A program made the position numbers and the translations under genes. Below are positions 7,332-59,558 of a DNA stretch of 64,000 bases, piece after piece; position 1 is the first letter of the stretch; every line of letters begins with the position of its first letter. A model generated the notes under the pieces. That model was not told the DNA's origin, made no database searches, and worked only from the letters and a program-made list of their open reading frames with translations. The stretch covers positions 1,594,844 through 1,658,843 of the forward strand of contig OZ220686.1 of assembly GCA_965116435.1 (NCBI GenBank), in the 5' to 3' direction. Origin of the DNA: Rhodothermales bacterium. Its GTDB lineage: Bacteria > Bacteroidota > Rhodothermia > Rhodothermales > VXPQ01.

Positions 7332-7832
7332 GAGCCTTATCTGTTACTTACAGAATGTTACGTACGAGCCTGCGCCGAACGCGACCGGGGCAAGGCGGCG
7401 GGGAGACGATCCCCGGCCCGGTATGCCCGGTGTGCGCCGTGCGGCGGGCGCGTAAAAACGCGTAAAAAATGGAGCGCCCCGGCCCCTGCAGGCGCAAGAA
7501 GCACCCGAAGTCGGCGCCGGGGCGTCTCCCGAAAAGGACGCGCTCCCGAGCGGTGGATAGAAGAACCTCTACCTTGAACAATGCGGGAATCACTCGCATT
7601 CTTCCGATCGTCCCTGCCTTTCCGAAGAAAAGACCTCGCTTGCGTGCAAGGAGGGTGGGCCTGCCGTCCGAATGTGAAGACCGACTCCCTTATGAATATC
7701 CTTGTCAGGTTCTAATATGCATCCGCAACAGGTGCGCGCTATCCCATCCGTTTATGGACAGGAATAGGCTTTTTAACGGCAGAAGCGTCAAGGGTTCCCC
7801 ACCCGATCGCCCAGCCCGATCACACTGGCCGA

Positions 7833-10271
7833 TCACCATGCCAAACGAACCCGGAGATTAAACGTGCGCGGCGTCAGGCGGGTGGGAATGCGCTCCCATA
7901 TTCCGTCGCGGTTCGGCGTCCAGGCATAGGCTACCGTGTTCGTCATATTGAACGCATTGAGCAGCTCCGCGGTCAATTCCAGACGCAAACCCGCCCCGAC
8001 GTCCACGATCTTCGTAGCCCCCAGATCGACGCGCCGGTACGCAGGATACCGGGCCGAATTTCGTGCGCCGGGCGCCTGAATGACGAAGCGCCCGACTTGC
8101 CGGTCGGGCACCGGCGGCGTGTAGGGAAATCCGCTCCCGAACAGCCCGCGCACATGCACTTTCCAGGTGGAATCTCCCGGCACATAGTCCTGCACGAACA
8201 GCGACACCGTGTGCCGCTGATCCGACGGACGCGCAATGCTTCCGGTGCGATATTCCGTCCGGTATTCCGGCAAAAACGTCTCGACGGCGTGCAGATACCC
8301 GTAATTCAGGCGACTTTCGAGGCCGGGCACGAGTTCGCCGTACAGATGCACGTCCAGCCCAAGCGCCCGCCCCTCCGTATCGTTCCGGCCGGAATACAGC
8401 AGGCGAACGTTCCGCACGTCGTACGATATGAGCCGATCCATATCCCGGTAAAACGCGGCGGCGCGTACGTACAGCCGCCGGGCGGGCAAAAAATATTCGC
8501 CGCCCACAACATATTGCACGGCCCGCTGAGACCGGATATCGCGGTTCAGCGCATCGGGTATCGTTTCGCCCGGCGCAGGCGTACCCCGAAATTCGCGGTA
8601 GGTCGGCGTCTGGCGATAGTGGCCCCACGAACCGGTGGCCGTCAAGCGTTCGCTCACCGCGTACCGGGCCGAAATTCTCGGGGAAACGGTCCAGGCGCCG
8701 TTGAACGAAAAACGGTCCGCCCGCATCCCGGCGGTAAGGGTTAGCCCGCCTCGCTGCATGGTATTCTGCGCGTACGCGCCGGTTTGCCACGCCGAAAGCG
8801 AGGATTCGTCGGACAGGCGGTTCACCTCGATGCGGACGGCGTCCCCGTTCGTGTCCCTGCCAAACAGGTTGGCGTACTCGTCGATCCGGTCGGAAAAAGA
8901 CCAGGCCCGAACGCGCCAGCCCGCCTCCGCTGCGTGCCGCCCCGCCTGCCATCTGTACCGGCCCTGCCCGGTCCATGCAGCGCTTTCTATGGCGTTGTCG
9001 GCGAATTCCTCTTCGCGCACGTTCCCTATGGGCGCATGGCCCGCGCCGGTTTCAGGATCGCCGCCGGGATCGACGCGAAACACGACCGACGTCCCCTCGA
9101 TATCGAAGCGTTCCGTCTCGGACGTGCCGAACCAGGCTATATCGTGTTCTGCGTGGACCGACGGAGAAATCCGGTTCAGCAAACGGACGCCAGCGAACCG
9201 CGTCCGGTATCCGTCGTGTTCCGCGCCCTCGTACCGGGTCCAGAACGAACGCAAGTCCGACGGTACGTCGGGATGGAGGCTCAAGACGCCGAACCAGGTC
9301 TTGCGGCTCTCCGGGCTGAAGCGGAACACATGGTTGGCGTACATGCCCAGTACTTCGATTTCGTGTCCCGCCCGGAAGCGCCAGGTCGCCAGCCCCTGTA
9401 CGTCCGTGTAGTCGGGGCGATAATCCCCCTTCAGTTCCTGCGTACCAAAGAAATGCCGGGCGCGCGCCTTCCGAAACCCGGCGTTCCATCCAAACCGCCC
9501 GTCCGCCGCCGCCCCCCGGTACGCCACGCTGGCGTCCAGCAACGAGGCCGAGGCAGACCCGCCCATGGATTCGACATACGGACGGCGATAGCGCGTGTCC
9601 AACACAGAGGACAATTTGCCGCCGTACTTCGCCGGAAATCCCCCCGTGTACAGCACGATCCGATCGGCCAGGTCCGGGTTCAGCAAGCCGAGTCCTTCCT
9701 GCTCTCCTTGCCTCGGGCGCAACGGCATGTGCACCTCGAAACCGTTGATCAGGATAAGATTCTCGTGAAATCCGCCCCCATGCACCGAATACTGGTTGGA
9801 GAGTTCGTTGTTGGTCGCGACGCCCGGCAATACGCTCAACGCCTGGAACCCCTTGAACGGCGAAGGCACGTTGCGCACAGCCTCCGAGTCCAGTTCGTAC
9901 ACCCCGGGGTTCGTAAAAAACACATTCCCTTCCACCACAATATCCTGCATCTCGACCGTAGACGCCCGCAGGCGAACGTCCAGAACCACCCGTTCGCCGG
10001 AACGGATCTGCACGCGCCGCCATGTCGTCTCGTACCCCACCGCCGAGAACCGCAACACATGGGTCCCCGACGGGAGCCGAAGCACATAGGTCCCGTCCTC
10101 CTTGCTGGCGGTGCCGAAGTTGGTGTCGCGCACCAGAATGCTGACGTCGGGAACGGGCGTATCCTCCGCAGCCGTCAGGATGCGCCCGGACGCCGCCCCC
10201 CATTCCTGGGCCAGGGCGCCGAAAGGCCACAAGGCGGCGACGACAGCCAAAAAGGCGAATGCAGTGCGCAC
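7833..10271 (-). CDS. TonB-dependent outer-membrane receptor with N-terminal CarboxypepD_reg-like domain
   Basis: Signal peptide, then ...ILVRDTNFGTASKEDGTYVLRLPSGTHVLRFSAVGYE (carboxypeptidase-regulatory-like fold). Plug/barrel-like sequence with an aromatic C-terminal residue. Confidence 0.82.
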   Translation of the reverse strand: MRTAFAFLAVVAALWPFGALAQEWGAASGRILTAAEDTPVPDVSILVRDTNFGTASKEDGTYVLRLPSGTHVLRFSAVGYETTWRRVQIRSGERVVLDVRLRASTVEMQDIVVEGNVFFTNPGVYELDSEAVRNVPSPFKGFQALSVLPGVATNNELSNQYSVHGGGFHENLILINGFEVHMPLRPRQGEQEGLGLLNPDLADRIVLYTGGFPAKYGGKLSSVLDTRYRRPYVESMGGSASASLLDASVAYRGAAADGRFGWNAGFRKARARHFFGTQELKGDYRPDYTDVQGLATWRFRAGHEIEVLGMYANHVFRFSPESRKTWFGVLSLHPDVPSDLRSFWTRYEGAEHDGYRTRFAGVRLLNRISPSVHAEHDIAWFGTSETERFDIEGTSVVFRVDPGGDPETGAGHAPIGNVREEEFADNAIESAAWTGQGRYRWQAGRHAAEAGWRVRAWSFSDRIDEYANLFGRDTNGDAVRIEVNRLSDESSLSAWQTGAYAQNTMQRGGLTLTAGMRADRFSFNGAWTVSPRISARYAVSERLTATGSWGHYRQTPTYREFRGTPAPGETIPDALNRDIRSQRAVQYVVGGEYFLPARRLYVRAAAFYRDMDRLISYDVRNVRLLYSGRNDTEGRALGLDVHLYGELVPGLESRLNYGYLHAVETFLPEYRTEYRTGSIARPSDQRHTVSLFVQDYVPGDSTWKVHVRGLFGSGFPYTPPVPDRQVGRFVIQAPGARNSARYPAYRRVDLGATKIVDVGAGLRLELTAELLNAFNMTNTVAYAWTPNRDGIWERIPTRLTPRTFNLRVRLAW

Positions 10272-12201: not shown

Positions 12202-13602
12202 ATGAAACGATCAACACTACCCAAGCGAGAGACCTCTCGCCCCGCATTACGCGCGGCGCCTTTCACCGCAGGACTGCTTGTCGTGCTGCTGGCCGGTTGT
12301 TACACGCAATTGAGCACGGTTCAATACGAACAGTACCCCGATTACGTGGAGGTGGTGCAAAGCGCCGAGGACACCGTCGTCACGGAACACTACTACAGCG
12401 ACCGGTACGTCTACAGCGGGCCCTACGGCTATCGGCGGTATTTCGACCGGTTCGATTACGGCTGGAGTCCGTACTCGTCCAGTGCGTTCTTCGGGCCGTC
12501 CTGGGCCGATCCCTTGTGGTACGACCCCTGGAGCTACGGATATGGATACAGCGGCGTTCGCGTGGGCTTGTCCTTCGGATCGCATTGGGGATGGGGCGGA
12601 AATTCCTACTACGCCCCCTGGCGTTACGATCCGTACTACCACAGCCCCTGGCATTACGATCCGTATCGCCCCTATAGTCCCTACGGCTATTACCCGGGCT
12701 ACGCGCATACCTGGAACCCCTATTACGGCGGATGGCGGTATGACTATCCGGGAACGATTCGCCCCAGAGATGGCGAATGGAGAGATGGAGAATGGGGTCG
12801 TCGCGGGGCGACCATGGGACGGGGCGGCGGAACCCACGGATACGCCGGGGACGTCGGGAACGCCCCGGTCCGCGAAGTGGGCAGGGCGGGAAGCGCTTCC
12901 GCCGGAAAGACGCGCGGCGGTTCGGCCGTGTCTGGCGGGCGCTCGACGCGAACCGGATCGGGCGTAACGCCCACCCGGTCCCGCGATACGCGGCGCACCA
13001 CTGCGACAACCAGCGGATCAAGCGGACGCACCGTGCGCTCGGCGCCCGGATCCCGGTCTTCGTCGGCGACCGGCAGCCGGAGTACCGCACGCACGTCCGG
13101 CTCCTCAAGCAGCGGCGATAGCGGGTCCAGCGGACGAACCGTACGGCGCACGCCCTCTTCAAGCAGCGGCAGCAGCGGGTCCAGCGGGCGCACCGTACGA
13201 CGCACGCCCCCCTCGAGCAGCGGCAGTAGTGGGTCCAGCGGACGAACCGTACGACGCACGCCCTCCTCGAGCAGCGGCAGCAGCGGGTCCAGCGGGCGCA
13301 CCGTACAGCGCACGCCCTCCTCGCGGTCTTCGTCGTCCAGCGGCAGTCGGGTCCGCTCGTCCGGCTCCTCGCGGAGCAGCGGCAGCAGTTCCAGCGGAAG
13401 CACCGTACGGCGTACGCCCTCTTCAAAGAGCAGCGGCTCCAGTGGACGCACCGTACGCTCGGCGCCGTCCTCGCGGAGAAGCAGCGGATCGAGCGGAGGC
13501 GCCGTACGTTCCTCCCCGCCGCCGAGGTCTTCGTCGGGCAGCAGCGGACGGTCTTCTTCGAGAGGCTCCTCCTCATCGTCAGGCCGTTCCCGCGGACGAT
13601 AA
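12202..13602 (+). CDS. Low-complexity lipoprotein: Tyr/Trp/Pro/Gly-rich N-half and Ser/Gly/Arg/Thr-rich repeat C-half
   Basis: MKRSTLPK...LLVVLLAGC lipobox. Codon-periodic tandem repeats. Long antisense ORFs here are by-products of the repeats. Start chosen at the ATG preceding the signal peptide. Confidence 0.6.
   Translation: MKRSTLPKRETSRPALRAAPFTAGLLVVLLAGCYTQLSTVQYEQYPDYVEVVQSAEDTVVTEHYYSDRYVYSGPYGYRRYFDRFDYGWSPYSSSAFFGPSWADPLWYDPWSYGYGYSGVRVGLSFGSHWGWGGNSYYAPWRYDPYYHSPWHYDPYRPYSPYGYYPGYAHTWNPYYGGWRYDYPGTIRPRDGEWRDGEWGRRGATMGRGGGTHGYAGDVGNAPVREVGRAGSASAGKTRGGSAVSGGRSTRTGSGVTPTRSRDTRRTTATTSGSSGRTVRSAPGSRSSSATGSRSTARTSGSSSSGDSGSSGRTVRRTPSSSSGSSGSSGRTVRRTPPSSSGSSGSSGRTVRRTPSSSSGSSGSSGRTVQRTPSSRSSSSSGSRVRSSGSSRSSGSSSSGSTVRRTPSSKSSGSSGRTVRSAPSSRRSSGSSGGAVRSSPPPRSSSGSSGRSSSRGSSSSSGRSRGR
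13108..13323 (+). repeat. Four near-perfect 54-bp (18-aa) in-frame tandem repeats, with degenerate copies on both sides (~13000-13500)
   Basis: Unit agcagcggcNNNagYgggtccagcggRcgMaccgtacgRcgcacgcccYcYtcR encodes SSG(D/S)SGSSGRTVRRTPSS. Confidence 0.85.
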
Positions 13603-13767
13603 ACGGTACGACGAACCGGCATAGCCGCGGCGTGGCAACCTTCCCCGGAAGTATCGTCAGGATCGTGCTTTTCAAGCGATCCCAAGCCCTTCCTGTACCC
13701 TTGCGAACCGTACCCCATGCCCACAACCGTGTCAGGATACTCTGAACAAAACCAGACAGGCACTCCC

Positions 13768-15318
13768 ATGAAAAGGCGCTTTCTTTCCATACTGACCCTT
13801 GTCCTGTTCGCGGCGTCTCCCGCCTATGCGCAGACCCTCGACAACACCTACGTCTTCACCTCGAGATCCCCGGCGACCGGCCCGCGCATGATGGGCATGG
13901 CGGGTGCCGGTATCGCAGGCATAGCGGACTACGGGGCGCTGCGTACGAATCCCGCCGGGCTGGGCTATTTCAAGAACTCGGAGGTCAGCGGCGCCCTGCA
14001 CGCGTTCTCATCCACAGACGCCTCCAAATACCGGACCGGCATTCGCACGGTTGCCGAGGGGGAAACCGATGTGCGCGCCACGCGCCTCGGCAACCTGGCC
14101 TGGATACAGAAATTCCCGACGTCGCAAGGGTCGTTCGTGCTGGGCGGGGCGTTCAACGAACTCGGCACGTTCGACCGCAACCTGACGTTCGCGGGAACGA
14201 ACGCATCCAGTTCCATCAGTACGTCGTGGCTGCCCTACGGCGACGAGTTTACGATTGACAAGGACGAAAATGGCTATTTCCCGGTGTTCTCCAACGACCT
14301 GCCCAAACTGGCCTACGAAGGCGGAGCCATCGAATTTCTGGAGGAAAACGTGCTCCTGGACAGCGACCTGTTCTATGAGGCCGTTGCGCCGGGCACGCGC
14401 ATCGAACAAATGGGGGATGTGCTCGAAAAGGGACGTATGAGCGAATTGAGCCTTGGCGGCGCCTGGGAGGCAAGCCGGAATGTGATGGTCGGTTTGTCGG
14501 CCAACTTCGCATTCGGTTCGTACCGCATCGACAACGTATACGAGGAAGCGGACGCCTACGGCGAAAACGGACCGGAGGAGTACGAGGTGATTCTGGACAG
14601 CGGTTCCCTGTTCGGGTTTCAGAGCCTGCTCTACGAGGAAGGGTTCGATTCGGACCTGAGCGGATTCAATCTGCGGGGCGGCGTCTCCACGACGTTCTCA
14701 AGCGGATTGCGCGCAGGCCTCTCGATAGAAAGCCCTACGTTCTACGAAATAAGCGAAACCCATTACCGGGAGATTGCAACCCGGTTCGACGAGGGCGGCT
14801 TGCTGAAGGCCGACATCAGTTACCAATACGAATACGAGTTGCGCACCCCCTGGCGCATGGGGGTCGGCGTATCCTGGGAACCCGGCAACCTGCTTCTGGC
14901 CGCGGATATGGAATATGTGGACTGGTCCCAGATGGAGTTCGACGGACATGAGGCGGACAGCGACTTGTACAGGAACCTGAACCGGGAAATACGGGACACC
15001 ATGGACCCGGTCTGGAATATGCGGATCGGCGCATCGTATGCATTCGAAAACGTTACCTTTCGAGGCGGCATAGCCAACTATCCCGATCCGTTCGACCTGG
15101 AGGTCTCGCAGGGCAGCGGCAAAGCCGACCGCGACCGAGGCTTCCTGTCCTTCGGCGTGTCGTACCGCTTCTCGGACACGTTTCATGTCGATGCGGGATG
15201 GACAGGCGTGGAATACCAGGACCAGTACACTCCGTACCGTCACGTGGACGATCCGCCGCTCGCCGAGGAAACCGTAACGCAGCAACGCTTCCTGCTGGGC
15301 ATACGGGTAGGATTCTAA
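13768..15318 (+). CDS. Outer-membrane beta-barrel protein, FadL/OmpP1/TodX-like transport family
   Basis: Signal peptide MKRRFLSILTLVLFAASPAYA. N-terminal MGMAGAGIAGIADYGALRTNPAGLG motif. C-terminal ...LLGIRVGF with terminal Phe. Confidence 0.65.
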   Translation: MKRRFLSILTLVLFAASPAYAQTLDNTYVFTSRSPATGPRMMGMAGAGIAGIADYGALRTNPAGLGYFKNSEVSGALHAFSSTDASKYRTGIRTVAEGETDVRATRLGNLAWIQKFPTSQGSFVLGGAFNELGTFDRNLTFAGTNASSSISTSWLPYGDEFTIDKDENGYFPVFSNDLPKLAYEGGAIEFLEENVLLDSDLFYEAVAPGTRIEQMGDVLEKGRMSELSLGGAWEASRNVMVGLSANFAFGSYRIDNVYEEADAYGENGPEEYEVILDSGSLFGFQSLLYEEGFDSDLSGFNLRGGVSTTFSSGLRAGLSIESPTFYEISETHYREIATRFDEGGLLKADISYQYEYELRTPWRMGVGVSWEPGNLLLAADMEYVDWSQMEFDGHEADSDLYRNLNREIRDTMDPVWNMRIGASYAFENVTFRGGIANYPDPFDLEVSQGSGKADRDRGFLSFGVSYRFSDTFHVDAGWTGVEYQDQYTPYRHVDDPPLAEETVTQQRFLLGIRVGF

Positions 15319-15347
15319 GGAAACCGCCCAAGCCCAAGGAAGAATTG

Positions 15348-15407
15348 CCGGGGTTTCGGAAGCCGGTTTTGGGTACATTAGGTATGCGAACTCTTCCGAA
15401 ACCCCGG
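15348..15407. other. 15-bp perfect inverted repeat (ccggggtttcggaag / cttccgaaaccccgg) with a 30-nt loop at the left edge of the lower-GC segment
   Basis: Arms at 15348-15362 and 15393-15407. Sits between the FadL-like stop (15318) and the ATPase start (15420). No T-tract follows. Confidence 0.6.
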
Positions 15408-15419
15408 CGACCCGCTCCG

Positions 15420-16688
15420 ATGATTCGTCGCATCCAGGCCCTGAATTACCGTTGCCTGCGCCATGTGGATGTGGCGCTGGATTCGTTCCATGTGCTGGTG
15501 GGCCCCAACGCCAGCGGGAAGAGCACGTTGTTCGATGTGGTCGCCTTCCTGGGCGACATGGTGCGAGAGGGCCTTGAGGCCGCCGTAGAAAAACGCACCC
15601 GGAATTTTCAGGACCTTGTCTGGGACAGGCCCCGGGAAGGCCTTGGTTTCGAGCTGGCGGTAGAGTTCGACATTTCGGACGCCATCAAAAAAAGATTGCC
15701 CTCGGATAAGAACTTTGAAGTATTTCGTTACGAGGTAGCCATCAAGGAAGGAGAAAGCGGGACGGCTATAATCAACTCGGAAAGAGGACTGCTTATGCCT
15801 CGCCATAACTGGCAAGAGAGGCAATTATCCATATTCCCTTCCCCGTTGGATCCGATTAATACCATCATGCTGGGCGGCGGGCGCCCAGGCGTACGAACCA
15901 TACTCAGTAAGTCGCCCGCGGGATCTGACAGTTTCCACAGCGAGGTCTCGTCGGCAGCGGGAAGCGGCTGGACAACCAGCATCTCCTTTGGCCCATATCG
16001 GTCGGCGCTTGGCAACTTTCCCGAGTCCACCGATGTGTTTCCCGTTGCCACCGGCGTCAAGCGGATGCTGGAAACACAGGTAAAACTTCTGGCTCTGGAC
16101 AGCGGCAAGATGCGCGCGGCCAGCCCTCCCGCGTTGCGGCGCAACGGTTTCTTCAGCGACGGCGCGAATCTCCCCTGGACGATCAAGAATTTGAAAGAGC
16201 ATGACCGGAAAAATTACGCGGAGTGGCTGGAGCACGTTCGGACTACCTTGAAAGACATCAAGGACATTGACGTCAAGGAGCGGAAAGATGACCGACATGC
16301 CTACCTTGTAGTCGAGTACGATACAGGCATTCACGTGCCGTCGTGGGGCGTTTCCGACGGAACGCTACGGTTTCTGGCGCTCACGCTCATTCCGTATCTG
16401 TCCGAAGAAGGGTATCTCTATTTGCTGGAAGAGCCCGAAAACGGCATTCACCCACTCGCAATCGAAGCCGTGTACGATTCGCTGGCGTCGGCGTACGACT
16501 CGCAGGTGCTGGCGGCGACCCATTCCTCCGCTTTCTTGCGAAAGGCTCGACTGGAGGAAGCGCTCTGTTTCGCCAAAGACAAAAACGGGGCGACGGACAT
16601 CGTGTGCGGCGCGGATCATCCGCGCTTACGGGATTGGCAAAAAGCCGTAGATATGAACCTGTTGTTCGCTGAGGGAATTATCGGATGA
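15420..16688 (+). CDS. ABC/SMC-like AAA ATPase (AAA_21/AAA_15-type, OLD/AriA/AbiL-like N-terminal ATPase architecture)
   Basis: Walker A GPNASGKST near the N-terminus. Signature-like SDGTLRFLAL. Walker B/D-loop YLYLLEEPENGIHP. The start at 15420 places Walker A about 30 aa in; 15384 and 15198 are upstream alternatives. Confidence 0.8.
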   Translation: MIRRIQALNYRCLRHVDVALDSFHVLVGPNASGKSTLFDVVAFLGDMVREGLEAAVEKRTRNFQDLVWDRPREGLGFELAVEFDISDAIKKRLPSDKNFEVFRYEVAIKEGESGTAIINSERGLLMPRHNWQERQLSIFPSPLDPINTIMLGGGRPGVRTILSKSPAGSDSFHSEVSSAAGSGWTTSISFGPYRSALGNFPESTDVFPVATGVKRMLETQVKLLALDSGKMRAASPPALRRNGFFSDGANLPWTIKNLKEHDRKNYAEWLEHVRTTLKDIKDIDVKERKDDRHAYLVVEYDTGIHVPSWGVSDGTLRFLALTLIPYLSEEGYLYLLEEPENGIHPLAIEAVYDSLASAYDSQVLAATHSSAFLRKARLEEALCFAKDKNGATDIVCGADHPRLRDWQKAVDMNLLFAEGIIG

Positions 16689-17347
16689 ATGAGTACGCGA
16701 AAGATATCTTCGCTCTGGTTGCAGACAGAGATATGGAACAGGCTTTCACGAGTTTATTGGCGCAACATGAAAAATTGCGTATTCGACGGATACGTTACGA
16801 TATTGAGGTGCATCCAAACCACGATGCAGGATGTCGAGCAGATGCCGTCGAGATGTTACGGCCCTGCATTAACCGCTACAGGTATGCCTTGGTGGTTTTT
16901 GACCACCAGGGTTGCGGCAGCAAGGATTCAAGAGAGCATGTGCAGCAAGAGGTTCAGAAAATCCTTGCGCGGAACGGTTGGGAAAACCGTTGCAAGGCCA
17001 TCGTGATTGCGCCGGAATTGGAAAACTGGGTATGGGCGCCCTCGGGAAAGATATCCGAAATCCTAGGTTGGGGAAATGACTTCGACGCCCTCAAGACGTG
17101 GCTGTGCAAACACCGTTTATGGAGCCGTGATCAGCCGAAACCTATCGACCCGAAGCGTGCAATGCAAAAAGCCTTGAAGCACAAAAGGGTAAGGCGCTCT
17201 TCCAGGCTATTCGGGCAGATTGCCCATGTTGCGCCGCTGAAAGCGGAATCTTGTGTGGATCCCGCTTTCGCCGAACTCAGGGAAACGTTGCAACGATGGT
17301 TTCCCCCGGAAAACCACACCGGTAACGGACTGCGTGGCGTATCTTAA
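16685..17347 (+). CDS. Small partner protein, DUF4276/Toprim-like (tentative)
   Basis: ATGA overlap with the ATPase gene (16685-16688). Acidic beta-strand-end motifs [16 protein letters not shown] and [10 protein letters not shown] recall what I remember of DUF4276/Toprim-like partners of AAA_21 ATPases. Not verifiable here. Confidence 0.5.
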
Positions 17348-17376
17348 ACAGAACCCGCAGGACTCATACGAAACCC

Positions 17377-18411
17377 TTGGCGCCTTCCCCGGAAACTGTG
17401 TCGAACAGTGATCTTGCATATCAGGAACGTATTCTGCAAGGCGTTTCCCGCACCTTTGCCCTCACGATCCCGCAGTTACCGACCGGGCTGCGCGACGTCG
17501 TAGGGAATGCCTACCTCCTGTGCCGCATCACGGACACGATCGAAGACGATCCGGCCCTCTCCGCCGAACAAAAACGAGCGTTCGCAGAACGTTTCGCCGA
17601 CATCGTCGCAGGACGAGAAGACGCCGAACCGTTTGCGCGCGAACTCGGCCCCCTGCTGTCGTCTTTTACCTCCCCGGACGAACGCGACCTGATCGCCCAC
17701 GCCGACCGCGTTATCCGCCTTACCAGCGGATTCAACGCCGCCCAGCGAGGCGCCCTCGAACGTTGCGTCCGCATTATGGCGCACGGCATGGCGGAATTTC
17801 AACAGAGCGCCACGCCGAACGGCCTGAACGACATCCCGCACCTGGATCGCTATTGCTACTACGTAGCGGGCGTCGTAGGCGAAATGCTCACCGAGCTGTT
17901 CTGCGACTATTCCAGCGAGATCAACGAACATCGCGAGGAATTGCTGGCGCTGGCCGTTTCCTTCGGACAAGGCTTGCAAATGACCAACATCCTCAAGGAC
18001 ATATGGGACGACCGGGAGCGCGGCGCATGCTGGCTTCCGCGGGACGTCTTTCTCGCCGCCGGTTTCGACCTGCACGCCCTGTCTCTGGACCAGACCCATC
18101 CCGGGTTCGCCGAGGGATTATCCGAACTGGTCGGCGTCGCCCGCCAACACCTCGAAAACGCGCTCCGGTACACCCTGATCATACCTGCCCGCGAAACGGG
18201 CATTCGGCGACACTGCCTGTGGGCGCTGGGCATGGCCGTACTAACCCTCCGACGCATTCACGCAACGCCTGCGTTCCGCAGCGGACAGGAGGTGAAAATT
18301 TCCCGGCGCAGCGTGTGGACGGTGGTTATCGTCACCAGCATCCTGGCGCGCTCGAACCGGGCGCTGACGTTCCTTTTCAGGGCCATGGCGAAACGGTTGC
18401 CTTCCTCGTGA
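17377..18411 (+). CDS. Squalene synthase (farnesyl-diphosphate farnesyltransferase), SQS_PSY family
   Basis: [12 protein letters not shown], Asp-rich [18 protein letters not shown], second Asp-rich NILKDIWDD. The DTxED form is SQS-like rather than CrtB-like. TTG start in the track. Confidence 0.78.
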
Positions 18412-18603
18412 ACCTTCCCGTCGAAAAAACCGGTTTCATATTCTTTGCGTCTTCAGGAAACACTCAATAAAATGATTCAGTTTAATTCGTTTTTATTGTG
18501 CGCAATCTGCTTACGTAAGACCCAAATTCTTCCGGCCTCCCGAACCAACAACATACAAAAACCCCTCTGTGCCAATAAAGAACGCGAAGGTACGTAATCC
18601 CCC

Positions 18604-19806
18604 GTGATCGCAGAACCGGAATATATCCCCTCGTGTTATCTGCCCGGCTACGCCAAGGCCCGGGCATTGAACGCTGAACGGGCAGCCAATCATGTGGCCC
18701 ACTCGCTTATCGGAGACCCCGAAGCCGATGAGGTGATTGAACACATGGAGGCGATGCAGCCTGGCGAGGCGGCGCGATTATACAAGCTGGGAATAAACGC
18801 AGCTGATCCCGCGGAACGGGATCAGCTCTTGCGCGACGCCCCGCCCGCATTGCGGGATTTCCTGAACAAGCTGGATACGCCGCCCGACTGGGTCGATCTG
18901 TCGGCCTGTGGTCCGGGCGTACGCATGTTTCACAGGAATTCGCATCTGGTGCTCGGCGCCTTTGTCGGGGGCACCCTCATAGAGGGATTCGCGACGAACA
19001 TCAGCAAGTCTTTTTTCATAACCGGGCGAGTTCGGGAATACGGCGTCAGGCGTTTACGACAGAATAACCGCCACATGTTGGAAATATTCATGCCGGGCGG
19101 CCTGGGACGAGGCGGCGACGGCTGGAAATTGTCCATGCGCATCCGACTGATCCACGCACAAATAAGACACCTCCTGAACAACGCGGAAGACTGGGATACG
19201 GAAGCATGGGGCGTACCTATTAGCGCGGCGCATATGGGCTTCTCCATCGCAGCGTTTTCCGCAAGGTTGCTTAAGCATCTGAAAAGCCTGGGCGCTGGAT
19301 ACAGCCACGAAGAACGCGAGAGTTTTATGCAAATCTGGCGCTATTCGGGATTTTTAATGGGCGTTCCCGAAACGATTTTGTACCACGACGAGGAAGAGGC
19401 GTTAGAGATATTTCGCATAGGCCGCATGTGCGAACCTTCGAGCGAACTGGAAGCCGTCGCCATGGCGAATGCATTGATCAACTCGGCCCCGCTGGTGATA
19501 GGCGTTACGGAATCGAGCGCCCGATTCGCCTTGGCCCAGTATGTATACCGGGTGTCCCGGGCGCTCATTGGAAACGACCTGGCCGATGCGCTGAAATACC
19601 CTGCGGGCCGGACCTTCGGCGTACTGCCGTTGTTCCGGCTTCAGTCTCGTTACGCCAGCATCATCGAACGCTTGTTCCCGAACCGCAAAAAAGGAGGAGG
19701 CTTCTCCCGATTCACGGCCCTGCTTGAAGCCTCTGCATTCGATATCGCGGGCATAAACTTCAGAATGCCGGAGAAATTGTATGCGGAACAAGACATCAAT
19801 TATTAG
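18604..19806 (+). CDS. MpaB/Lcp-family oxygenase (DUF2236), paralog 1
   Basis: WKLSMRIRLIHAQIRHLL motif and overall collinearity with the next two ORFs. GTG start. Confidence 0.7.
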   Translation: MIAEPEYIPSCYLPGYAKARALNAERAANHVAHSLIGDPEADEVIEHMEAMQPGEAARLYKLGINAADPAERDQLLRDAPPALRDFLNKLDTPPDWVDLSACGPGVRMFHRNSHLVLGAFVGGTLIEGFATNISKSFFITGRVREYGVRRLRQNNRHMLEIFMPGGLGRGGDGWKLSMRIRLIHAQIRHLLNNAEDWDTEAWGVPISAAHMGFSIAAFSARLLKHLKSLGAGYSHEERESFMQIWRYSGFLMGVPETILYHDEEEALEIFRIGRMCEPSSELEAVAMANALINSAPLVIGVTESSARFALAQYVYRVSRALIGNDLADALKYPAGRTFGVLPLFRLQSRYASIIERLFPNRKKGGGFSRFTALLEASAFDIAGINFRMPEKLYAEQDINY

Positions 19807-19883
19807 CATGCAATAGAGGGTCCGGGTTTGGCCATCCAGGAAAGATCCGTCCGATTTACTTGATCAACACGCAGGATAAAGCC

Positions 19884-21053
19884 ATGCGCATGCCCTCCGC
19901 ATATCAAGACGGTTACGAGAAGGCGCGTGCCCTATACCCAGAGCTGGCGGACGCCTATATTGAGAATACCCTTGTGGGCGATCCTGTGGCGGACGCCGCC
20001 ATGGAGTCGCTGGCGGAATGTAGCCAGGAAGACAGGCATCGCTTTATCAAGGCAGGCATGGAGCGCGACGAGGAAGGCCTGCGAGCCGCTCCGAACGCAC
20101 TGCAGGAGTTTTTCGCCGTCCTTGACCGGCCGCCGCCGTTCGAGTTCGACCCGGAACTGGCGGCCATTGGCTCTCGTGCTTTCTACAAATATTCGGATAT
20201 GTTCTTCGTCGGGTTGGTGCTGGATTCGCTCATCACTGGCCTCAGCGAAGGATTAGCAAAAGCGTTCTATATTACAGGGCGAACGGCGGGAAATAGCCGT
20301 AGAGTCAAGCAGAATACCAGGCATGTGGTGGAGATTACCTTGCCGGGCGGCATGGAACGAATGGGCGATGGCTGGAAACTAACCGTTCGCATTCGCCTCA
20401 TCCATGCGCAGGTGCGGCTGCTATTGCTCAATTCGGACGAATGGGACGTACCCACGGAAGGGGTGCCGCTCAATATGGCGCATATGGCATTGGCGGGCAC
20501 AGGATTTTCCGCGATCAACCTGCGGTCGGCGAGGAAGTTGGGCGTACGGTTGACAAAGGACGAAAGCGCCGGCTTCATGCACATTTGGCATTATGTCAAC
20601 TGGTTGCTGGGCGTACCGGAAAGTCTGCTGTACCGCACCGAAGACGAGGCCTTGCGCATCCGGAAAATCGCCCGCGCCTGCGAGATTCCCCCCGGCGAAA
20701 AGGCCATTGCCGTAGCGCACGGCTACATCAACACCGTCCCTGAACTGCTCGACGTCCAGGAGCCCGCCAAGCAGCAAAAACTCCTCAACGGCCTGTTTCG
20801 GGTCTCGCGGGCATTGATTGGAAACGAACTGGCCGACGCCCTCGATTTCCCCAGGCAAGCGACGTTCGGGATTCTGGCGCTGACGCGGCTGCAACGGCAG
20901 TTCCAGATCCTCCGTTCAAAAATCGTTCCGGGGGCTATGCCGCATGCCGTGGAGAATTTTTCGGGGCTGATACATCGGTCCGTGTACGACAAAAGCGGAA
21001 TCAGTTACCGCATGCCCGACGCCGTGAAAGGGGACGAGTCGAGTTGGTGGTAG
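19884..21053 (+). CDS. MpaB/Lcp-family oxygenase (DUF2236), paralog 2
   Basis: WKLTVRIRLIHAQVRLLL. N-terminus MRMPSAYQDGYEKARAL aligns with the paralog 1 and 3 N-termini, so the ATG at 19884 is preferred over the TTG at 19860. Confidence 0.7.
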   Translation: MRMPSAYQDGYEKARALYPELADAYIENTLVGDPVADAAMESLAECSQEDRHRFIKAGMERDEEGLRAAPNALQEFFAVLDRPPPFEFDPELAAIGSRAFYKYSDMFFVGLVLDSLITGLSEGLAKAFYITGRTAGNSRRVKQNTRHVVEITLPGGMERMGDGWKLTVRIRLIHAQVRLLLLNSDEWDVPTEGVPLNMAHMALAGTGFSAINLRSARKLGVRLTKDESAGFMHIWHYVNWLLGVPESLLYRTEDEALRIRKIARACEIPPGEKAIAVAHGYINTVPELLDVQEPAKQQKLLNGLFRVSRALIGNELADALDFPRQATFGILALTRLQRQFQILRSKIVPGAMPHAVENFSGLIHRSVYDKSGISYRMPDAVKGDESSWW

Positions 21054-21108
21054 TGCTTCGTGCTTCGCGGGCAAGCCCATGAAACTACGCGCGGCGCGGA
21101 TGAACGCG

Positions 21109-21143
21109 CACCGCACCGGCGGATACGTAACCAATGGGGCCTG
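21109..21143 (+). repeat. 35-bp direct repeat, copy 1 (caccgcaccggcggatacgtaaccaatggggcctg)
   Basis: 33/35 identical to 22547-22581. Contains the quasi-palindrome GGATACGTAACC. Lies 56 nt after the paralog 2 stop. Confidence 0.8.
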
Positions 21144-21263
21144 ACGAGTGCGCTACGCAGAGCAAGGAGCGTCGACAAACGACGGAACAAAGCAGGAAAC
21201 AGGCTGGTCTACAAGTCGTTCAGAGGTTTTCCAGGCACGATTGGACAGATTTTTAAATACGCC

Positions 21264-22444
21264 ATGATGCAGGTACCTTCAGCGTATGTCAAGGGATATG
21301 CGAAAGCCAAGGCTGTTGACCCGGTAACGGCCGACAAGTACATCAAGCATACCACCATAGGCGACCCTGAGTTGGATCCCGTGATGGAGGAGATTTCATC
21401 GTTGCCCCCTGGCGATCTGCATCGATTCACCAAGGCAGGCATAGAACAGGAGGAGGAAGTTCTGCGTACTGCGCCGCAAGTCTTGCGCGATTTCTTTGAC
21501 AAGACTGACCGTGATACTCCTCCGTGGCTGGACTACAACGAGTTTGAACCAGGGCAGCGCGCCTTCTACGCAAACTTGAACAACATGCTCATTGCATACG
21601 CTATCGGAAGCGCCGTAGAAGGCTTTTCGACGCTTGTCAGCAAGTCTTTCTCGATTACCGGACGCGTAACCGGTGGGGGAGCAGGCGCCGAAAGACGTCT
21701 CAGGCAGAATAACCGACACATGGTTGAAGTATATTATCCTGGTGGAATGCAACGGGATGGTGACGGATGGAAAGTATCCATGCGCATTCGTTTCATACAT
21801 GCCCGGGTAAGGAAACTGCTGGCGGACTCAAGCCTTTGGGAGTACGAGGCTTGGGGAGTACCGCTGAGCGCAGCGCATACAGGAGGCATCTCCTTGTTCA
21901 CTTTTTCCATACGCCAGTTCGAACACGCATGCGCGATGGGTTCGAAAGTAAGCACGGAACAAAAAGAAAGCATTATTAAAATTTGGCGTTATGCCGGCTA
22001 TCTGTTGGGAGTGCCTGAATCCATACTCTTTGCCAATGAAGAAGAAGCGAGAAAAATTTACAAAATCGGCCATATGTGCGAACCACCGCCGGATTCCGAT
22101 GCGAAAAACTTGGCGAATATGGTATTCAAGGTCTTACCGACCATGGCGGGTCTGACGGACGAGGCTAAAAGAAAAGTTTGGAAATGTATGCCTACCGCCT
22201 TTCGCGAGCCCTTATAGGCAACAAACTTGCGGACCAGTTTCAGTACCCGAGAACTTTCAGAATAAGACCGCTGGTGCTGGCTTATTACCGGATAAAAAAT
22301 CATTTGCCTAATCTCATGAAGAATATCGGCAGCCAGCAAGAGGATGCGTTTTCTCAGATTTTCGATGCCACGCAGTATGACAAGGGCGGGATAAGCTACA
22401 AGATGCCCGACCATGTGCGTGCGTCGAAGTCCAACCTATGGTAA
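21264..22444 (+). pseudogene. MpaB/Lcp-family oxygenase paralog 3, interrupted by a -1 frameshift in an A-rich run (~22167-22175)
   Basis: 21264-22217 (..WKVSMRIRFIHARVRKLL..) ends prematurely. The frame opening at 22178 continues ..YRLSRALIGNKLAD..GISYKMPD.., collinear with the paralog 2 C-terminus (..FRVSRALIGNELAD..GISYRMPD..). Confidence 0.7.
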
Positions 22445-22546
22445 GATGTTGAAAAAGCTGTACTTAGGCTAAGCAAGAGCACCGAGAGCATCCGCGTAAG
22501 ACGGGGTGTCCAGAAAACTGTGTACGTTTATTTTTAGCGACGTTTT

Positions 22547-22581
22547 CACCGCACCGGCGCATACGTAACCAATGGGCCCTG
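22547..22581 (+). repeat. 35-bp direct repeat, copy 2 (caccgcaccggcgcatacgtaaccaatgggccctg)
   Basis: See copy 1. Lies 103 nt after the paralog 3 stop. Confidence 0.8.
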
Positions 22582-22629
22582 TTTTCCGTACAATGGGTAC
22601 CCCCTTATTGCGCTTTTTCGCCCGCATTG

Positions 22630-24153
22630 CTATCCCCCGAAAAAGGGTTCCCAGCGGGCGCGGTCGGGAGGAGGCGTGGCGAGACTCACGCCCACGAGCG
22701 CCAGCACGGACAAAATAACGGCAGGGTAGGTTACTTCCTGCAAAAACGGGTGCATATCGGCGAACCAGGGCTGCCCGGACATCCAGAATGTCCATACAAG
22801 CGTGACGACGGTTCCGGTCAGAATGGACGCGATGGCGCCCGCCGCCGTAGCCCGCTTCCACAGAAACGCCGCAAGCAAGGCAGGCGTAATGGACGTGCCG
22901 TACACCAGATAGGCCGTATACGCCGCCGTCAGGATGGTCGGAAACTGATCCACGAGCATCCAGGCGACAATCCCCAGCAGGAGCACCCATCCCCGGCTCA
23001 TCAGCACGATGGCGCGGGAACCCATATCCGGCGCGATAAAGCGTTGCACCACATCCCGCGTCAGGTTCGTCGCGGGCACCAGCAGAAACGAGTCGGCGGT
23101 GGACACGATGATCGCCATCATGGTGGCCACCAGCATCATGCCCAGCACGAGCGGCATGGCGTCGGAAACGGCAAGGGCGGGGATAATGTACTCGGAGCGG
23201 TTGGCCGCCACATCCGCGGCGCCCCCGGCGAACAGTTCGGGAATCAGCCCCTGATTGGCCGCCGCGGCGCCGGTCAGCCCCACGAAATACACGGCGGATT
23301 CCAGCGCCACCACGCCGATCACCCAGAAAAACACCGCCTTCTGCGCGGCATGGCCATCCTTTGCGCTGAATATGCGCTGATACATGTTGGCGTCGCCCAT
23401 CAGGAGCAGCATGGTGGGAATCAGAAAGGAGATGGCCACGATCGGCCCGGACGTGGCCCCGCTGCGCTCGTTCGCCCAGTTCCCGAACAATTCCCATTTC
23501 CCCGCCGCTTCTGCGTACAAAATAATCTCGTCCATCCCGCCCACCGCATGCACCATGAAGAATACGGTGGCGAACACGCCCAGCACCATGAGCACGCCAT
23601 TCACGACATCCGTGTACACGACCGACAGCATCCCGGCCAGCGCCGTATAGGCAATGGCGAAAACCGCCGTGATCACAATACCCGCCTGCACGGAAATGGC
23701 GCCGTCCGTAATATAGGACAGTACGTTGCCGCCCCCCCGAAACTGGTACGAAACGATGGTGAGGTAGGCAATGACGGTGGCGATGGTCGCCAGTACGCTG
23801 GCGATGCGCCCGTACCGCGCCTCGAAAATGTCGGGCACGGTTACCTTCCCGAAATGCCGAATGCGCCGCGCAATAAAATAAATGAGCACGATGCCGGCCC
23901 AGGCGCCCGCGCTGGACCACAGCCCCGCCATGCCGTTGCGATACCCCAGTCCGGCGCTGCCGAACAGGGAGCCGCTGCCCATCCAGGTAGCAAGCAACGT
24001 GCCCACCAGCACCCACCAGTGCAGCGTACGGCCCGCCACCATGAAATCTTCGCCCGTCTTTACGACCCGGCTCTTGTAGTATCCGACCCCGACCAGGGCG
24101 AGCAAATAGCCGATTATGGCGAGGATGTAGGGGTTTTCAAAAAGCGCCAGCAT
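22630..24153 (-). CDS. Sodium:solute symporter (SSF/SLC5 family)
   Basis: N-terminus ...GYLLALVGVGYYKSRVVKTGEDFMVAGRTLHWWVLVGTLLATWMGSGSLFG is typical of SSF. About 13 TM segments. Confidence 0.88.
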   Translation of the reverse strand: MLALFENPYILAIIGYLLALVGVGYYKSRVVKTGEDFMVAGRTLHWWVLVGTLLATWMGSGSLFGSAGLGYRNGMAGLWSSAGAWAGIVLIYFIARRIRHFGKVTVPDIFEARYGRIASVLATIATVIAYLTIVSYQFRGGGNVLSYITDGAISVQAGIVITAVFAIAYTALAGMLSVVYTDVVNGVLMVLGVFATVFFMVHAVGGMDEIILYAEAAGKWELFGNWANERSGATSGPIVAISFLIPTMLLLMGDANMYQRIFSAKDGHAAQKAVFFWVIGVVALESAVYFVGLTGAAAANQGLIPELFAGGAADVAANRSEYIIPALAVSDAMPLVLGMMLVATMMAIIVSTADSFLLVPATNLTRDVVQRFIAPDMGSRAIVLMSRGWVLLLGIVAWMLVDQFPTILTAAYTAYLVYGTSITPALLAAFLWKRATAAGAIASILTGTVVTLVWTFWMSGQPWFADMHPFLQEVTYPAVILSVLALVGVSLATPPPDRARWEPFFGG

Positions 24154-26835: not shown

Positions 26836-26908
26836 GGTCCCGTAGCTCAGTTGGTAGAGCAACTGACTTTTAATCAGTGGGTCGCAGGTTCGATTCCTGC
26901 CGGGATCA
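26836..26908 (+). tRNA. tRNA-Lys (anticodon TTT)
   Basis: Manual cloverleaf: acceptor GGTCCCG/CGGGATC (one G-U), D-arm GCTC-AGTTGGTA-GAGC, anticodon arm ACTGA-CTTTTAA-TCAGT, T-arm GCAGG-TTCGATT-CCTGC. No encoded CCA. Confidence 0.9.
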
Positions 26909-27064: not shown

Positions 27065-27148
27065 GCCCGGGTGGCGGAATTGGTAGACGCACTGTCTTGA
27101 GGGGGCAGCGTTCGAAAGGACGTGCTGGTTCGAATCCAGTCCCGGGCA
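27065..27148 (+). tRNA. tRNA-Leu (anticodon GAG), long variable arm
   Basis: Acceptor GCCCGGG/CCCGGGC. Anticodon arm CTGTC-TTGAGGG-GGCAG. Variable arm ~GCGTTCGAAAGGACGT. T-arm GCTGG-TTCGAAT-CCAGT. Confidence 0.9.
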
Positions 27149-33945: not shown

Positions 33946-34104
33946 GGCTTCGGGTCGTGTATTCTTTGTTAGAAAATTGTAACGAATTGTACTTGCAATC
34001 CGTCGCGGGCAAGCATAAAATGGAAGGTAACGAATGGGCTACCATCCTATGCCTCACCCCCACTCGGTTCGTTGCCTCGAACCGCCACCCGCTTGATACA
34101 GTAC

Positions 34105-56471: not shown

Positions 56472-56585
56472 GGTGGTTCGGCTTCGTCGGGCAGCGTTTC
56501 CGGGTTTTAAGATGTAGAATTGCGATCTTGTCCCAATCCAACCAACCCAGAGAAAACTTCCCATGCCCACATTCAAAATCAAGAA
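56472..56585 (+). mobile_element. Solo copy of a nested IS junction: ~42 nt of an IS5-like 3' end plus an IS3-family left end. It extends through the transposase RBS/ATG and now forms the 5' region of the restriction gene
   Basis: About 90% identical over ~91 nt to the reverse complement of 60372-60462. Both copies run into an ATG at the same offset (56563 vs 60371). Confidence 0.75.
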
Positions 56586-57144
56586 CGCGGAACTCGCCGA
56601 GGCTGTGTCGCAGAAACAGCCTGATTTCCCCAAGTATACATCTCAGATTATCAACCTCGCCAACCAGAATGCTCAAGGTACGCGCCCCCGGGTTGTCGGC
56701 CAGATGACCGAGTTGTTTCAGGAGTTCGGGGGCAAAAGATATGAGGAATGGGATGCTTGGTACAGAAGCCAAAAACCCGAAGCCCTGGACGATGCAACAG
56801 ATCGAATCTATCCGATGGTGGAAAAATTGCGCACCGCTATACAGCAAATCGACAAAAGCATGGTGCGTGAGTGGGTTGAAGACCTTGTGCTCGTAAAGAC
56901 CTTTGTCGGCCTGTGCTTTCAGGAAGCAATCCTGGCAAGGGTTGCCCAACACAAGGAAACCAATTACCGGCTGGCAACGCCCTCAGAGGAATCGCAGGGA
57001 ATCGATGGCTTCATCGGCGAGACAGCGGTTTCCATCAAACCGTCAACATATGCGGTCAAGGACATGCTGCCCGAAGAGATACAGGGCGAAGTGATATTTT
57101 ATGAAAAGAAAAAGAGTGGACTTGCTGTGTCTTTCGATTTTTAG
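56563..57144 (+). CDS. Putative type II restriction endonuclease, PD-(D/E)xK-like (possibly MjaI-like family)
   Basis: Flanked by two methyltransferase genes, convergent with the second one with only a 4-nt gap. Candidate catalytic pattern E-x3-GIDGF-x3-E-x3-VSIKP. The MjaI-family idea is from memory only. Confidence 0.5.
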   Translation: MPTFKIKNAELAEAVSQKQPDFPKYTSQIINLANQNAQGTRPRVVGQMTELFQEFGGKRYEEWDAWYRSQKPEALDDATDRIYPMVEKLRTAIQQIDKSMVREWVEDLVLVKTFVGLCFQEAILARVAQHKETNYRLATPSEESQGIDGFIGETAVSIKPSTYAVKDMLPEEIQGEVIFYEKKKSGLAVSFDF

Positions 57145-57148
57145 CCAT

Positions 57149-58743: not shown

Positions 58744-58767
58744 ACGAGATTATCCCAACCTGAAAAG

Positions 58768-59430: not shown

Positions 59431-59558
59431 GGGTTCAGGGGTTTGAAATTCAAGGGAAGGAAGAAATGATCTGGAAAATTCGGACAGGTCGTTTATCTGT
59501 AGGGTTGCGCTGGGTCATGCCGTCTCCGGCAGCCATCTTTGTGATATAAATTGCTTAT

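Follow-up and report, generated by a model that had tools for sequence, protein, structure and literature searches.

Introduction

Does the squalene-synthase (SQS)-type gene of a Rhodothermales bacterium supply the substrate of the three DUF2236 genes, members of the MpaB/Lcp oxygenase family, that follow it on the same strand? The question is raised by a locus in a 64,000-nucleotide stretch of DNA, referred to below as the window (GCA_965116435.1, contig OZ220686.1, positions 1,594,844-1,658,843 of the forward strand). Bacterial squalene is known mainly as the starting material for hopanoids, sterols and some C30 carotenoids. An earlier note on this DNA had suggested that squalene, or a related C30 product made in situ, is the substrate of one or more of the DUF2236 proteins. 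Our data indicate that the SQS and DUF2236 genes represent established enzyme families whose conserved combination is undescribed, and the best reading of the region is that it forms part of a conserved, undescribed isoprenoid-lipid module. From the sequence comparisons, the balance is about even on whether the oxygenase acts on the product of the adjacent SQS, and cleavage of C=C bonds to an aldehyde or ketone by the DUF2236 proteins, which is proposed by analogy, is held with less confidence than that. The features of the cluster are as follows.

17377-18411, + strand: SQS_PSY gene, 344 residues, TTG start; PF00494, 193.4 bits (cut-off 26), profile positions 2-262 of 263
18211-18213, + strand: codon of SQS His279, which aligns with human Phe288 (alignment to 1EZF)
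18604-19806, + strand: DUF2236 paralog A, 400 residues; PF09995 MPAB_Lcp_cat, 60.8 bits (cut-off 23)
19048-19074: RRLRQNNRH motif of paralog A
19153-19155: codon of the proximal His184 of paralog A
19860-21053, + strand: DUF2236 paralog B, 397 residues; PF09995, 55.5 bits (cut-off 23); His182 at 20403-20405
21264-22444, + strand: DUF2236 paralog C, frameshifted; PF09995, 45.7 bits on the N-terminal piece (cut-off 23); His179 at 21798-21800
22172-22175, + strand: A4 run, one base short in comparison with orthologs; frameshift site of paralog C

The gene order and coordinates first given for the cluster were right, and all three paralogs match PF09995, on which the proposal had been made to depend. 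The motif WK[LV][ST][MV]RIR[LF]IHA[QR][IV]R, described as common to the paralogs, is present in all of them. Their similar termini (PSAY and GISY[RK]MPD) were quoted correctly except for paralog A, which reads PSCY.. and ..GINFRMPE, and a length of about 390-400 residues holds for A and B but not for C, which is not an intact open reading frame (ORF) as deposited.

Linkage of SQS and DUF2236 genes across genomes

The comparison used DUF2236-centred loci with 10-kb flanks, drawn from genomes and assemblies. In every Rhodothermales locus whose flank is long enough, an SQS gene is the immediate upstream neighbour of DUF2236; these loci represent about ten genomes (L001/2, L007/8/17, L009-L013, L015 and L016). 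Nor is the linkage unique to this genome, as the earlier note had allowed it might be, since it recurs in at least four phyla, in at least four gene orders and beside isoprenoid-precursor genes. The Acidobacteriota loci (Candidatus (Ca.) Versatilivorator, L003/L018) have IspH-SQS-SQS-DUF2236 facing genes for an outer-membrane protein (OMP), a DUF1329 protein and an MMPL transporter, while in Spirochaetia (L086) HMG-CoA synthase is followed by IDI-2 and SQS in a single ORF, then DUF2236 and then MMPL. In Gemmatimonadota (L088/L089) and in a further genome (L091) SQS-IspH faces OMP-DUF1329-MMPL-DUF2236, and in L092 an ortholog of paralog C heads a DUF2236-MMPL-DUF1329-OMP operon. Locus L173, which carries an SQS of the histidine type described below and comes from the same sample as L001, has DUF1329, OMP, polyprenyl synthase, SQS and IspH in one row.

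Two details of these loci may be recorded here. The two tandem SQS paralogs of Ca. Versatilivorator occupy 7876-9908 (+ strand) of L003, and the 752-residue ORF at 7744-10002 (+ strand) of L086, which joins a type-2 isopentenyl diphosphate isomerase to SQS, may be a fusion or reflect a missed stop.

The transporter gene has a wider distribution. An MmpL3-like MMPL gene lies directly beside DUF2236 on the same strand in 46 of the 87 DUF2236-centred loci, mostly from Chloroflexota; in 45 of the 46, 5-60 bp separate the end of the MMPL gene from the start of DUF2236, and the 10-kb flanks contain no SQS. The MMPL proteins linked to DUF2236 are of the HAE3 or MmpL3-like type, and in four loci (L003, L088, L091 and L092) a complete module was found, consisting of a COG1033-type MMPL, a DUF1329/TP_0789-like protein and an OMP of 416-455 residues with a faint DUF1302 match. 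The most widespread and general partner of these oxygenases is consequently an MMPL-type lipid transporter, and in several diderm lineages the transporter, the oxygenase, SQS and isoprenoid-precursor genes form one neighbourhood. Other recurrent neighbours of DUF2236 encode ABC ATPases, short-chain dehydrogenases/reductases, sulfatases, gamma-glutamyltranspeptidases, CoA-transferases and similar proteins. In six Rhodothermales loci (L007, L008, L012, L013, L016 and L017) the DUF2236 genes are followed, at about 11.2-13.6 kb on the + strand, by an amine-oxidase-family flavoprotein; over its full length it fits HpnE best among the NCBIfam models, at 73 bits, and it stays far below every cut-off. 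An AcrB-type RND efflux operon adjoins this flavoprotein/DUF2236 cluster in the second Rhodothermales group.

A partner-switching set (STAS protein, SpoIIE-type response regulator and HATPase_c_2 kinase) stands by the MMPL/DUF1329/OMP module at 16339-21203 of L092 and at 370-6817 of L173; it is accompanied in these two unrelated loci by a HAMP histidine kinase and a periplasmic binding protein, and possibly regulates the module. Most of the related loci are from metagenome-assembled genomes (MAGs), and we take their isolate labels to resemble those of marine-sponge microbiome surveys.

Comparison with hopanoid-type SQS loci

A set of 80 SQS loci at 55-68% identity, obtained from metagenome contigs scanned with an SQS-subfamily profile, was compared with the DUF2236-linked ones. 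A squalene-hopene cyclase (SHC) is encoded in 29 of the 80; in 20 of these 29 SQS shares its strand with a gene of cyclase size, and in L160, the example that was checked, the cyclase is directly downstream of SQS. The same loci contain HpnG-like phosphorylase (29 loci), HpnA-like epimerase (24) and HpnH-like radical-SAM/DUF3463 genes (11), and DUF2236 occurs in none of them. Conversely, a search at E < 1e-8 found no SHC, HpnG-, HpnA- or HpnH-like gene, either in the window or among 92 DUF2236-linked or related loci. The window was searched by phmmer with queries from the hopanoid-type loci and by Pfam scans of the 37 other main ORFs, which brings Pfam coverage to 39 of the 41 called ORFs when those of the cluster scan are counted; squalene-hopene cyclase, hpn and crt genes were absent from it, in agreement with the earlier note. 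Because DUF2236 and the SHC/Hpn genes never share a locus among those compared, DUF2236 can be said to take the place of the cyclase beside SQS.

The hopanoid-type loci hold the more distant members of the SQS subfamily, and the clade of the window enzyme was never beside SHC in the loci examined. As a rule the subfamily appears to be the squalene synthase of hopanoid clusters, and this setting is at present the strongest reason to believe that the window enzyme produces squalene or a near-identical compound.

The SQS-type enzyme and its residue 279

The window enzyme has the two aspartate-rich motifs of its family, DTIED (residues 53-57) and DIWDD (208-212, within NILKDIWDD), with D53, E56, D57, D208 and D212 conserved in at least 97% of 95 homologs. 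Its best NCBIfam score is with squal_synth TIGR01559 (116.9 bits), followed by HpnD (83), HpnC (53) and CrtB (49), and the TIGR01559 score falls short of the equivalog cut-off of 286.75 bits. Among structures in the PDB, the Trypanosoma cruzi and human squalene synthases match with E = 5e-20 to 3e-16 and CrtM with 1e-11 to 4e-7. Judged by these scores the enzyme is nearer to proven squalene synthases than to CrtM, CrtB, HpnC or HpnD. At residues 306-310 it reads VKISR, aligned to VKIRK (314-318) of the human enzyme, which is a proposed NADPH motif (PMC10378455); among the aligned sequences S309 and R310 do not vary, and V306 and K307 hardly do. The subfamily is highly conserved, with 70-75% identity across phyla, and SQS genes on contigs equal in length to those of the Rhodothermales MAG loci are 81-87% identical to the window SQS.

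The enzyme departs clearly from its hopanoid-linked relatives at His279, the position of human Phe288. In the human enzyme Phe288 sits along the central part of the substrate pocket, and the second half-reaction is lost when this residue is mutated (PMC4106277, PMC10378455). Phenylalanine occupies this position in all 56 hopanoid-linked homologs and in 20 of 21 unlabelled ones. Histidine is found in all 15 members of the core clade, which comprises the Rhodothermales enzymes, that of Gemmatimonadota L089, that of L091, and that of Halieaceae L090; 14 of these are from DUF2236-linked loci, and the remaining one is L090, whose examined flank is without DUF2236. The residue is also histidine in 105 of the 120 closest database relatives of the window SQS, and the two tandem paralogs of L003 have tyrosine and serine. 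The product of the histidine-type SQS is possibly a variant, for instance hydroxysqualene or dehydrosqualene.

The DUF2236 proteins

Paralogs A, B and C share 40-47% pairwise identity, far above chance. The group to which paralog A belongs is tightly conserved, its proteins being about 391-400 residues long; paralog A has 2495 homologs and is 72-81% identical to proteins of Rhodothermales MAG loci. Its type is widespread, and members from Rhodothermales, Acidobacteriota, Chloroflexota and other groups are about 60% identical to one another. Paralog B is divergent and lineage-specific, having a 98%-identical ortholog in the nearest relative (L001/L002) only, and no closer subfamily was found for it, the best representative elsewhere being at most 48% identical. 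Its start may be the ATG at 19884, which would match a 389-residue ortholog. Paralog C represents a second widespread type, with intact orthologs up to 75% identical, including one from a Rhodobacteraceae MAG; it has no ortholog in L001/L002.

The profile of the paralog A group matches the rubber oxygenase LcpK30 (5O1L/5O1M) with E = 2e-17 at an identity of about 18%. In the profile alignment the invariant His184, in RIRLIHAQIR, corresponds to Lcp His198, the proximal haem ligand, and the invariant Arg150, in RRLRQNNRH, to Lcp Arg164; in Lcp the former is 100% conserved and the latter essential (PMC6311187, PMC5522427). Arg181 and Arg188 correspond further to Arg195 and Arg202, and Trp197 to the Lcp-specific Trp211. 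The haem-site residues are kept in all three window paralogs, with His184, His182 and His179 within RIR[LF]IHA. An AlphaFold (AF2) model of paralog A (pLDDT 74.6, pTM 0.77) is all-helical and superposes on 5O1L/5O1M with probability 1.0 and TM-scores of 0.62-0.68 over 361-370 aligned columns, the next structural match being the haem-dependent t-anethole oxygenase 8S1J.

No signal peptide, N-terminal hydrophobic segment or RR motif was found in A, B or C (hydropathy at most 0.18 over the first 43 residues), nor any transmembrane segment (no 19-residue window above a hydropathy of 1.56). The paralogs are predicted to be cytoplasmic, and the lack of a signal peptide or transmembrane segment argues for an intracellular substrate. 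By sequence they are members of PF09995 and not Lcp in the strict sense, because a secretion signal is missing and Thr168 and Lys167 of Lcp are not conserved.

Paralog C is split into a frame at 21264-22217 (317 residues) and a second one at 22178-22444, which encodes the conserved C-terminal 88 residues (..GISYKMPD..). Intact orthologs read ..KSLQRYAYRLSRALIGN.. at the frameshift, where the window would read ..KSLEMYAYRLSRALIGN..; addition of one A to the A4 run restores ..EAKRKSLEMYAYRLSRALIGN.., colinear with the orthologs, and gives a 393-residue protein that aligns to them without gaps. A public protein collection carries the same truncated 317-residue product (P0241), which places the frameshift in the deposited assembly. 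A -1 slip on G AAA AGT would likewise restore the frame. The frameshift may be a homopolymer error, a recent mutation or pseudogene, or a -1 slip site (recoding).

Genes upstream of the cluster and possible horizontal transfer

Three genes precede the SQS gene on the same strand.

13768-15318, + strand: FadL/TodX-type outer-membrane protein gene; PF03349 Toluene_X, 40.7 bits (cut-off 29.7)
15420-16688, + strand: AAA ATPase of the MADS3/HEC-01A type; NF047739 antiphage_MADS3, 453 bits (cut-off 420)
16685-17347, + strand: partner of the MADS4/HEC-01B type; NF047734 antiphage_MADS4, 207 bits (cut-off 160)

The FadL/TodX-type protein has a signal peptide (MKRRFLSILTLVLFAASPAYAQ), with hydropathy peaking at the N-terminus, and is possibly an outer-membrane route for a hydrophobic molecule. 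Homologs precede SQS also in the closest Rhodothermales relatives (L001, L002 and L009-L011). Identity with the OMP of the MMPL/DUF1329 module was considered and rejected, as the protein shows no similarity to the OMP of 416-455 residues.

The presence of this gene here, in L001 and in L009-L011 bears on a different view of the locus, namely that the DUF2236 proteins are catabolic or detoxifying enzymes that attack exogenous isoprenoids of host or environmental origin (terpenoids, squalene or polyprenyls) entering through the FadL porin or handled by MMPL/RND proteins, with SQS as a neighbour for other reasons. The RND efflux genes adjoining the cluster in other Rhodothermales would fit this, as would the catabolic roles of Lcp and Nro1 (PMC5522427, PMC12724181), and hydrocarbons and monoterpenes are a reported setting of DUF1329/DUF1302/RND genes (10.1101/072470, PMC6394551). 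The sponge-type isolate labels of most related loci would point the same way. The paralogs, however, lack the signal peptide, and no aldehyde dehydrogenase, acyl-CoA synthetase or beta-oxidation gene recurs beside DUF2236 in the 87 loci, so that recurring catabolic neighbours are missing. The recurrent neighbours are instead biosynthetic (SQS, IspH, IDI-2, HMG-CoA synthase and polyprenyl synthase), and DUF2236 switches between the SQS operon and the MMPL operon across phyla as would be expected of one pathway. A catabolic role is therefore regarded as fairly unlikely.

The earlier note had left open whether the ATPase pair is co-transcribed with the cluster. With PADLOC the AAA ATPase scores best as HEC-01A (141 bits; mad3 120 bits) and its partner as mad4 (34 bits), with a weak HEC-01B match (20 bits). 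The pair is wedged between the OMP and SQS genes and has the same position in L009, but in the 97%-identical relatives L001/L002 it is missing and the OMP gene runs straight into SQS. The G+C content at third codon positions (GC3) of the MADS4-type gene is 0.57, compared with about 0.75-0.8 in the flanking genes. Other components of MADS, the methylation-associated defence system, including its methyltransferase, were not found adjoining the pair; the window has a single methylase, a type II enzyme encoded 40 kb from the pair, whose mad2 match is weak. Following the HEC-01A match, we consider the pair a candidate stand-alone two-gene defence system, and its membership of the pathway was rejected: the defence-family matches and the absence from the closest relative place it outside, as a defence-type insertion.

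The G+C content is 0.56-0.58 across 14001-24000, which covers the OMP, MADS, SQS and DUF2236 genes, in comparison with 0.61-0.67 on both sides, and low GC3 values mark paralog C (0.56) and the MADS genes (0.57-0.65). This dip, together with the fact that SQS and DUF2236 proteins remain 60-75% identical across phyla, suggests that the stretch from OMP to DUF2236 was acquired horizontally. If so, it might be asked whether there is any shared pathway at all, or whether the DUF2236 proteins act as haem-based sensors, or as enzymes with no connection to SQS, and came to lie beside it in a transferred mixed island. Such a view could draw on the 0.56-0.58 dip over 14-24 kb with its low-GC3 genes, on the cross-phylum identities, which suggest transfer, on the resemblance of the Lcp globin fold to globin-coupled sensors (PMC5522427) and on the STAS, SpoIIE and histidine kinase genes that adjoin the module in L092 and L173. 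It is nevertheless highly improbable, since the linkage survives in at least four gene orders in different phyla, the proteins have no output or signalling domain, the equivalent of Arg164 is invariant, and a random island would not give the mutual exclusion of DUF2236 and SHC loci.

Proposed pathway

In the pathway that we propose, the SQS-type enzyme would join two farnesyl diphosphates head to head to a C30 hydrocarbon in or at the membrane, as its family and context suggest. The product would be squalene or, given His279, possibly hydroxysqualene or dehydrosqualene. The cytoplasmic DUF2236 proteins, presumed to carry haem b, would then bind O2 at the His-ligated haem and oxidise a C=C bond of the C30 lipid. 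The example of Lcp, MpaB, Nro1 and t-anethole oxygenase makes cleavage to an aldehyde and a ketone the most likely outcome. Family members are known to cleave C=C bonds in polyisoprene (Lcp; PMC5522427), in a farnesyl chain (MpaB; PMC6900556, 10.1101/524025) and in nitrile rubber (Nro1; PMC12724181). The three paralogs may differ in the position of attack or in substrate, or carry out successive steps. In other genomes the product would be handed to the MMPL inner-membrane transporter, the LolA-like DUF1329 protein and the outer-membrane barrel; in the window the FadL-type protein is the sole envelope gene beside the cluster, and no MMPL-type transporter is nearby.

Several observations weigh against this pathway. 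The recurrent linkage supports the idea of an in-situ C30 product as the oxygenase substrate, but as His279 replaces Phe288 the product may not be plain squalene; and the association of histidine with DUF2236 is not absolute, because the SQS of L086 keeps phenylalanine. About 60 loci from Chloroflexota and other groups have MMPL-DUF2236 and no SQS within 10 kb, from which it follows that the oxygenase needs no adjacent SQS and that its substrate there could be another lipid. The MMPL/DUF1329 module is absent from the window, the export step being borrowed from other genomes. Gaps of 193 bp between SQS and paralog A and of 211 bp between B and C interrupt the cluster, a promoter and terminator scan of 13400-22700 gave counts no higher than in shuffled sequence and is uninformative on operon structure, and paralog C is frameshifted. 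Finally, Lcp Lys167 and Thr168 are replaced by the invariant Gln153 and Asn154 within RRLRQNNRH, and because of these two exchanges in the paralog A group the chemistry may differ from that of Lcp. Thr168 is 99.6% conserved in Lcps and the T168A variant keeps 2% activity (PMC6311187), while the distal Lys167 is just 59% conserved among them (PMC5522427).

The altered distal pocket leads to a variant of the same pathway, in which the DUF2236 proteins do not cleave but hydroxylate, epoxidise or desaturate the C30 lipid to a polar triterpenoid, moved by MMPL as a stand-in for hopanoids. A pocket differing from that of the cleaving enzyme would suit such a reaction, and so would the position of DUF2236 in the place of SHC beside SQS, the linked HpnN-like/HAE3 MMPL, as in hopanoid clusters, and the HpnE-like amine-oxidase flavoprotein after the paralogs in six Rhodothermales loci. 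On the other hand, the four characterised relatives (Lcp, MpaB, Nro1 and the t-anethole oxygenase 8S1J) all cleave alkenes (PMC5522427, PMC6900556, PMC12724181), and the literature searched holds no precedent for a non-cleaving member, which makes this variant rather improbable.

Returning to cleavage and to the pathway as a whole, it is tempting to speculate that the large histidine-type SQS clade has given up making plain squalene for hopanoids and makes a modified C30 intermediate, such as hydroxysqualene or dehydrosqualene, which cytoplasmic Lcp/MpaB-type haem oxygenases would convert to a new class of oxidised or cleaved triterpenoids for export through MMPL, DUF1329 and the outer-membrane barrel. 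In this complete form the scheme is tentative and should be taken as doubtful.

Other features of the window

The remainder of the window is largely housekeeping (proS, aspS, ccmF, dnaA, amtB-glnK and TonB receptors), and Pfam scans found no isoprenoid genes in it beyond the SQS-DUF2236 cluster. An Rfam scan of the whole window gave two tRNAs only and no riboswitch near the cluster. With dnaA in the window, the chromosomal origin is probably nearby.

22630-24153, - strand, opposite to the cluster: sodium:solute symporter gene
26836-26908 and 27065-27148, + strand: two tRNA genes, after aspS
34072-35565, + strand: dnaA
56563-57144, + strand: type II restriction enzyme
57149-58354, - strand: methyltransferase of the type II restriction enzyme
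60859-62145, + strand: RmuC
62368-63999, - strand: GmrSD-like protein, reaching the window edge

The last four genes lie in a patch of low G+C content (0.50-0.57) at 56563-63999 that resembles a small defence island. A tandem repeat of a 54-bp unit (4.1 copies, 87% matches) lies at 13101-13323, inside a 348-residue ORF at 12744-13790 (- strand) that is rich in Pro, Leu, Glu and Arg, has an unusually high first-position G+C content of 0.84 and gives no Pfam match; L001 has a called gene of 318 residues in its place. A 1330-residue protein at 36045-40037 (- strand) with DUF6807, DUF7133 and HEAT repeats is unrelated to the SQS-DUF2236 finding, and is followed by a DUF455 gene, an unannotated 759-residue protein and an FGE-sulfatase-family gene.

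Significance

Full-text searches, whose coverage excludes most subscription journals, found no paper linking DUF2236, MpaB or Lcp with a bacterial squalene synthase, which agrees with the statement in the earlier note that no such bacterial pathway was known to it. If the proposed pathway is true, it would add another fate for a squalene-type lipid, in uncultured lineages that are beyond the reach of genetics. Bacterial DUF2236 proteins, a large family that is expanded in mycobacteria (PMC3388012), would acquire their first physiological substrate that is not a polymer, and enzymes that cleave or oxidise squalene regioselectively would become available as biocatalysts. In SQS, the exchange of Phe for His at the second-step residue offers a handle on product control in head-to-head prenyl synthases. 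Should the scheme with a modified C30 intermediate hold, the window would carry a piece of an envelope-lipid or signalling pathway that replaces hopanoids and is shared horizontally among uncultured lineages, many of which appear from their isolate labels to be associated with sponges.

Comparison with known systems

The proposed reaction can be compared to that of the carotenoid cleavage oxygenases, in which an endogenous isoprenoid is cut at C=C bonds to aldehydes or ketones. The analogy is functional, as these enzymes are non-haem iron beta-propellers acting on C40 polyenes and are unrelated to DUF2236 in fold and cofactor.

Hopanoid clusters (SQS or HpnCDE, SHC, HpnG/HpnA/HpnH, IspH and HpnN) share with the DUF2236 loci the SQS subfamily, often IspH, and an MMPL-type exporter. 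The DUF2236 loci differ in having a haem oxygenase in place of the cyclase and Hpn genes, DUF1329 with an outer-membrane barrel, and the histidine-type SQS.

The MMPL/DUF1329/OMP set linked to DUF2236 resembles the DUF1302/DUF1329/RND (COG1033) module of Shewanella and Pseudomonas, which has been proposed to export a cell-wall component (10.1101/072470; 10.1101/2020.07.04.188060), but is without the BNR protein.

LcpK30, the haem-b rubber oxygenase of Streptomyces sp. K30 (5O1L/5O1M), belongs to the same family, PF09995, and on this basis an isoprenoid C=C bond is the expected substrate of the window paralogs. Lcp is however extracellular (PMC5522427), whereas the paralogs have no secretion signal and, being predicted to be cytoplasmic, make a polymer substrate implausible; in addition, unlike Lcp with its role in rubber catabolism, they are linked to a biosynthetic SQS and to exporters.

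The closest precedent in logic is fungal MpaB/MpaB' of mycophenolic acid biosynthesis, likened here by description. It belongs to the same Pfam family and carries out a biosynthetic alkene cleavage on a C15 chain that derives from a co-encoded prenyl-transfer enzyme (PMC6900556; 10.1101/524025). MpaB differs from the window paralogs in being bound to the endoplasmic reticulum membrane and in acting on a meroterpenoid.

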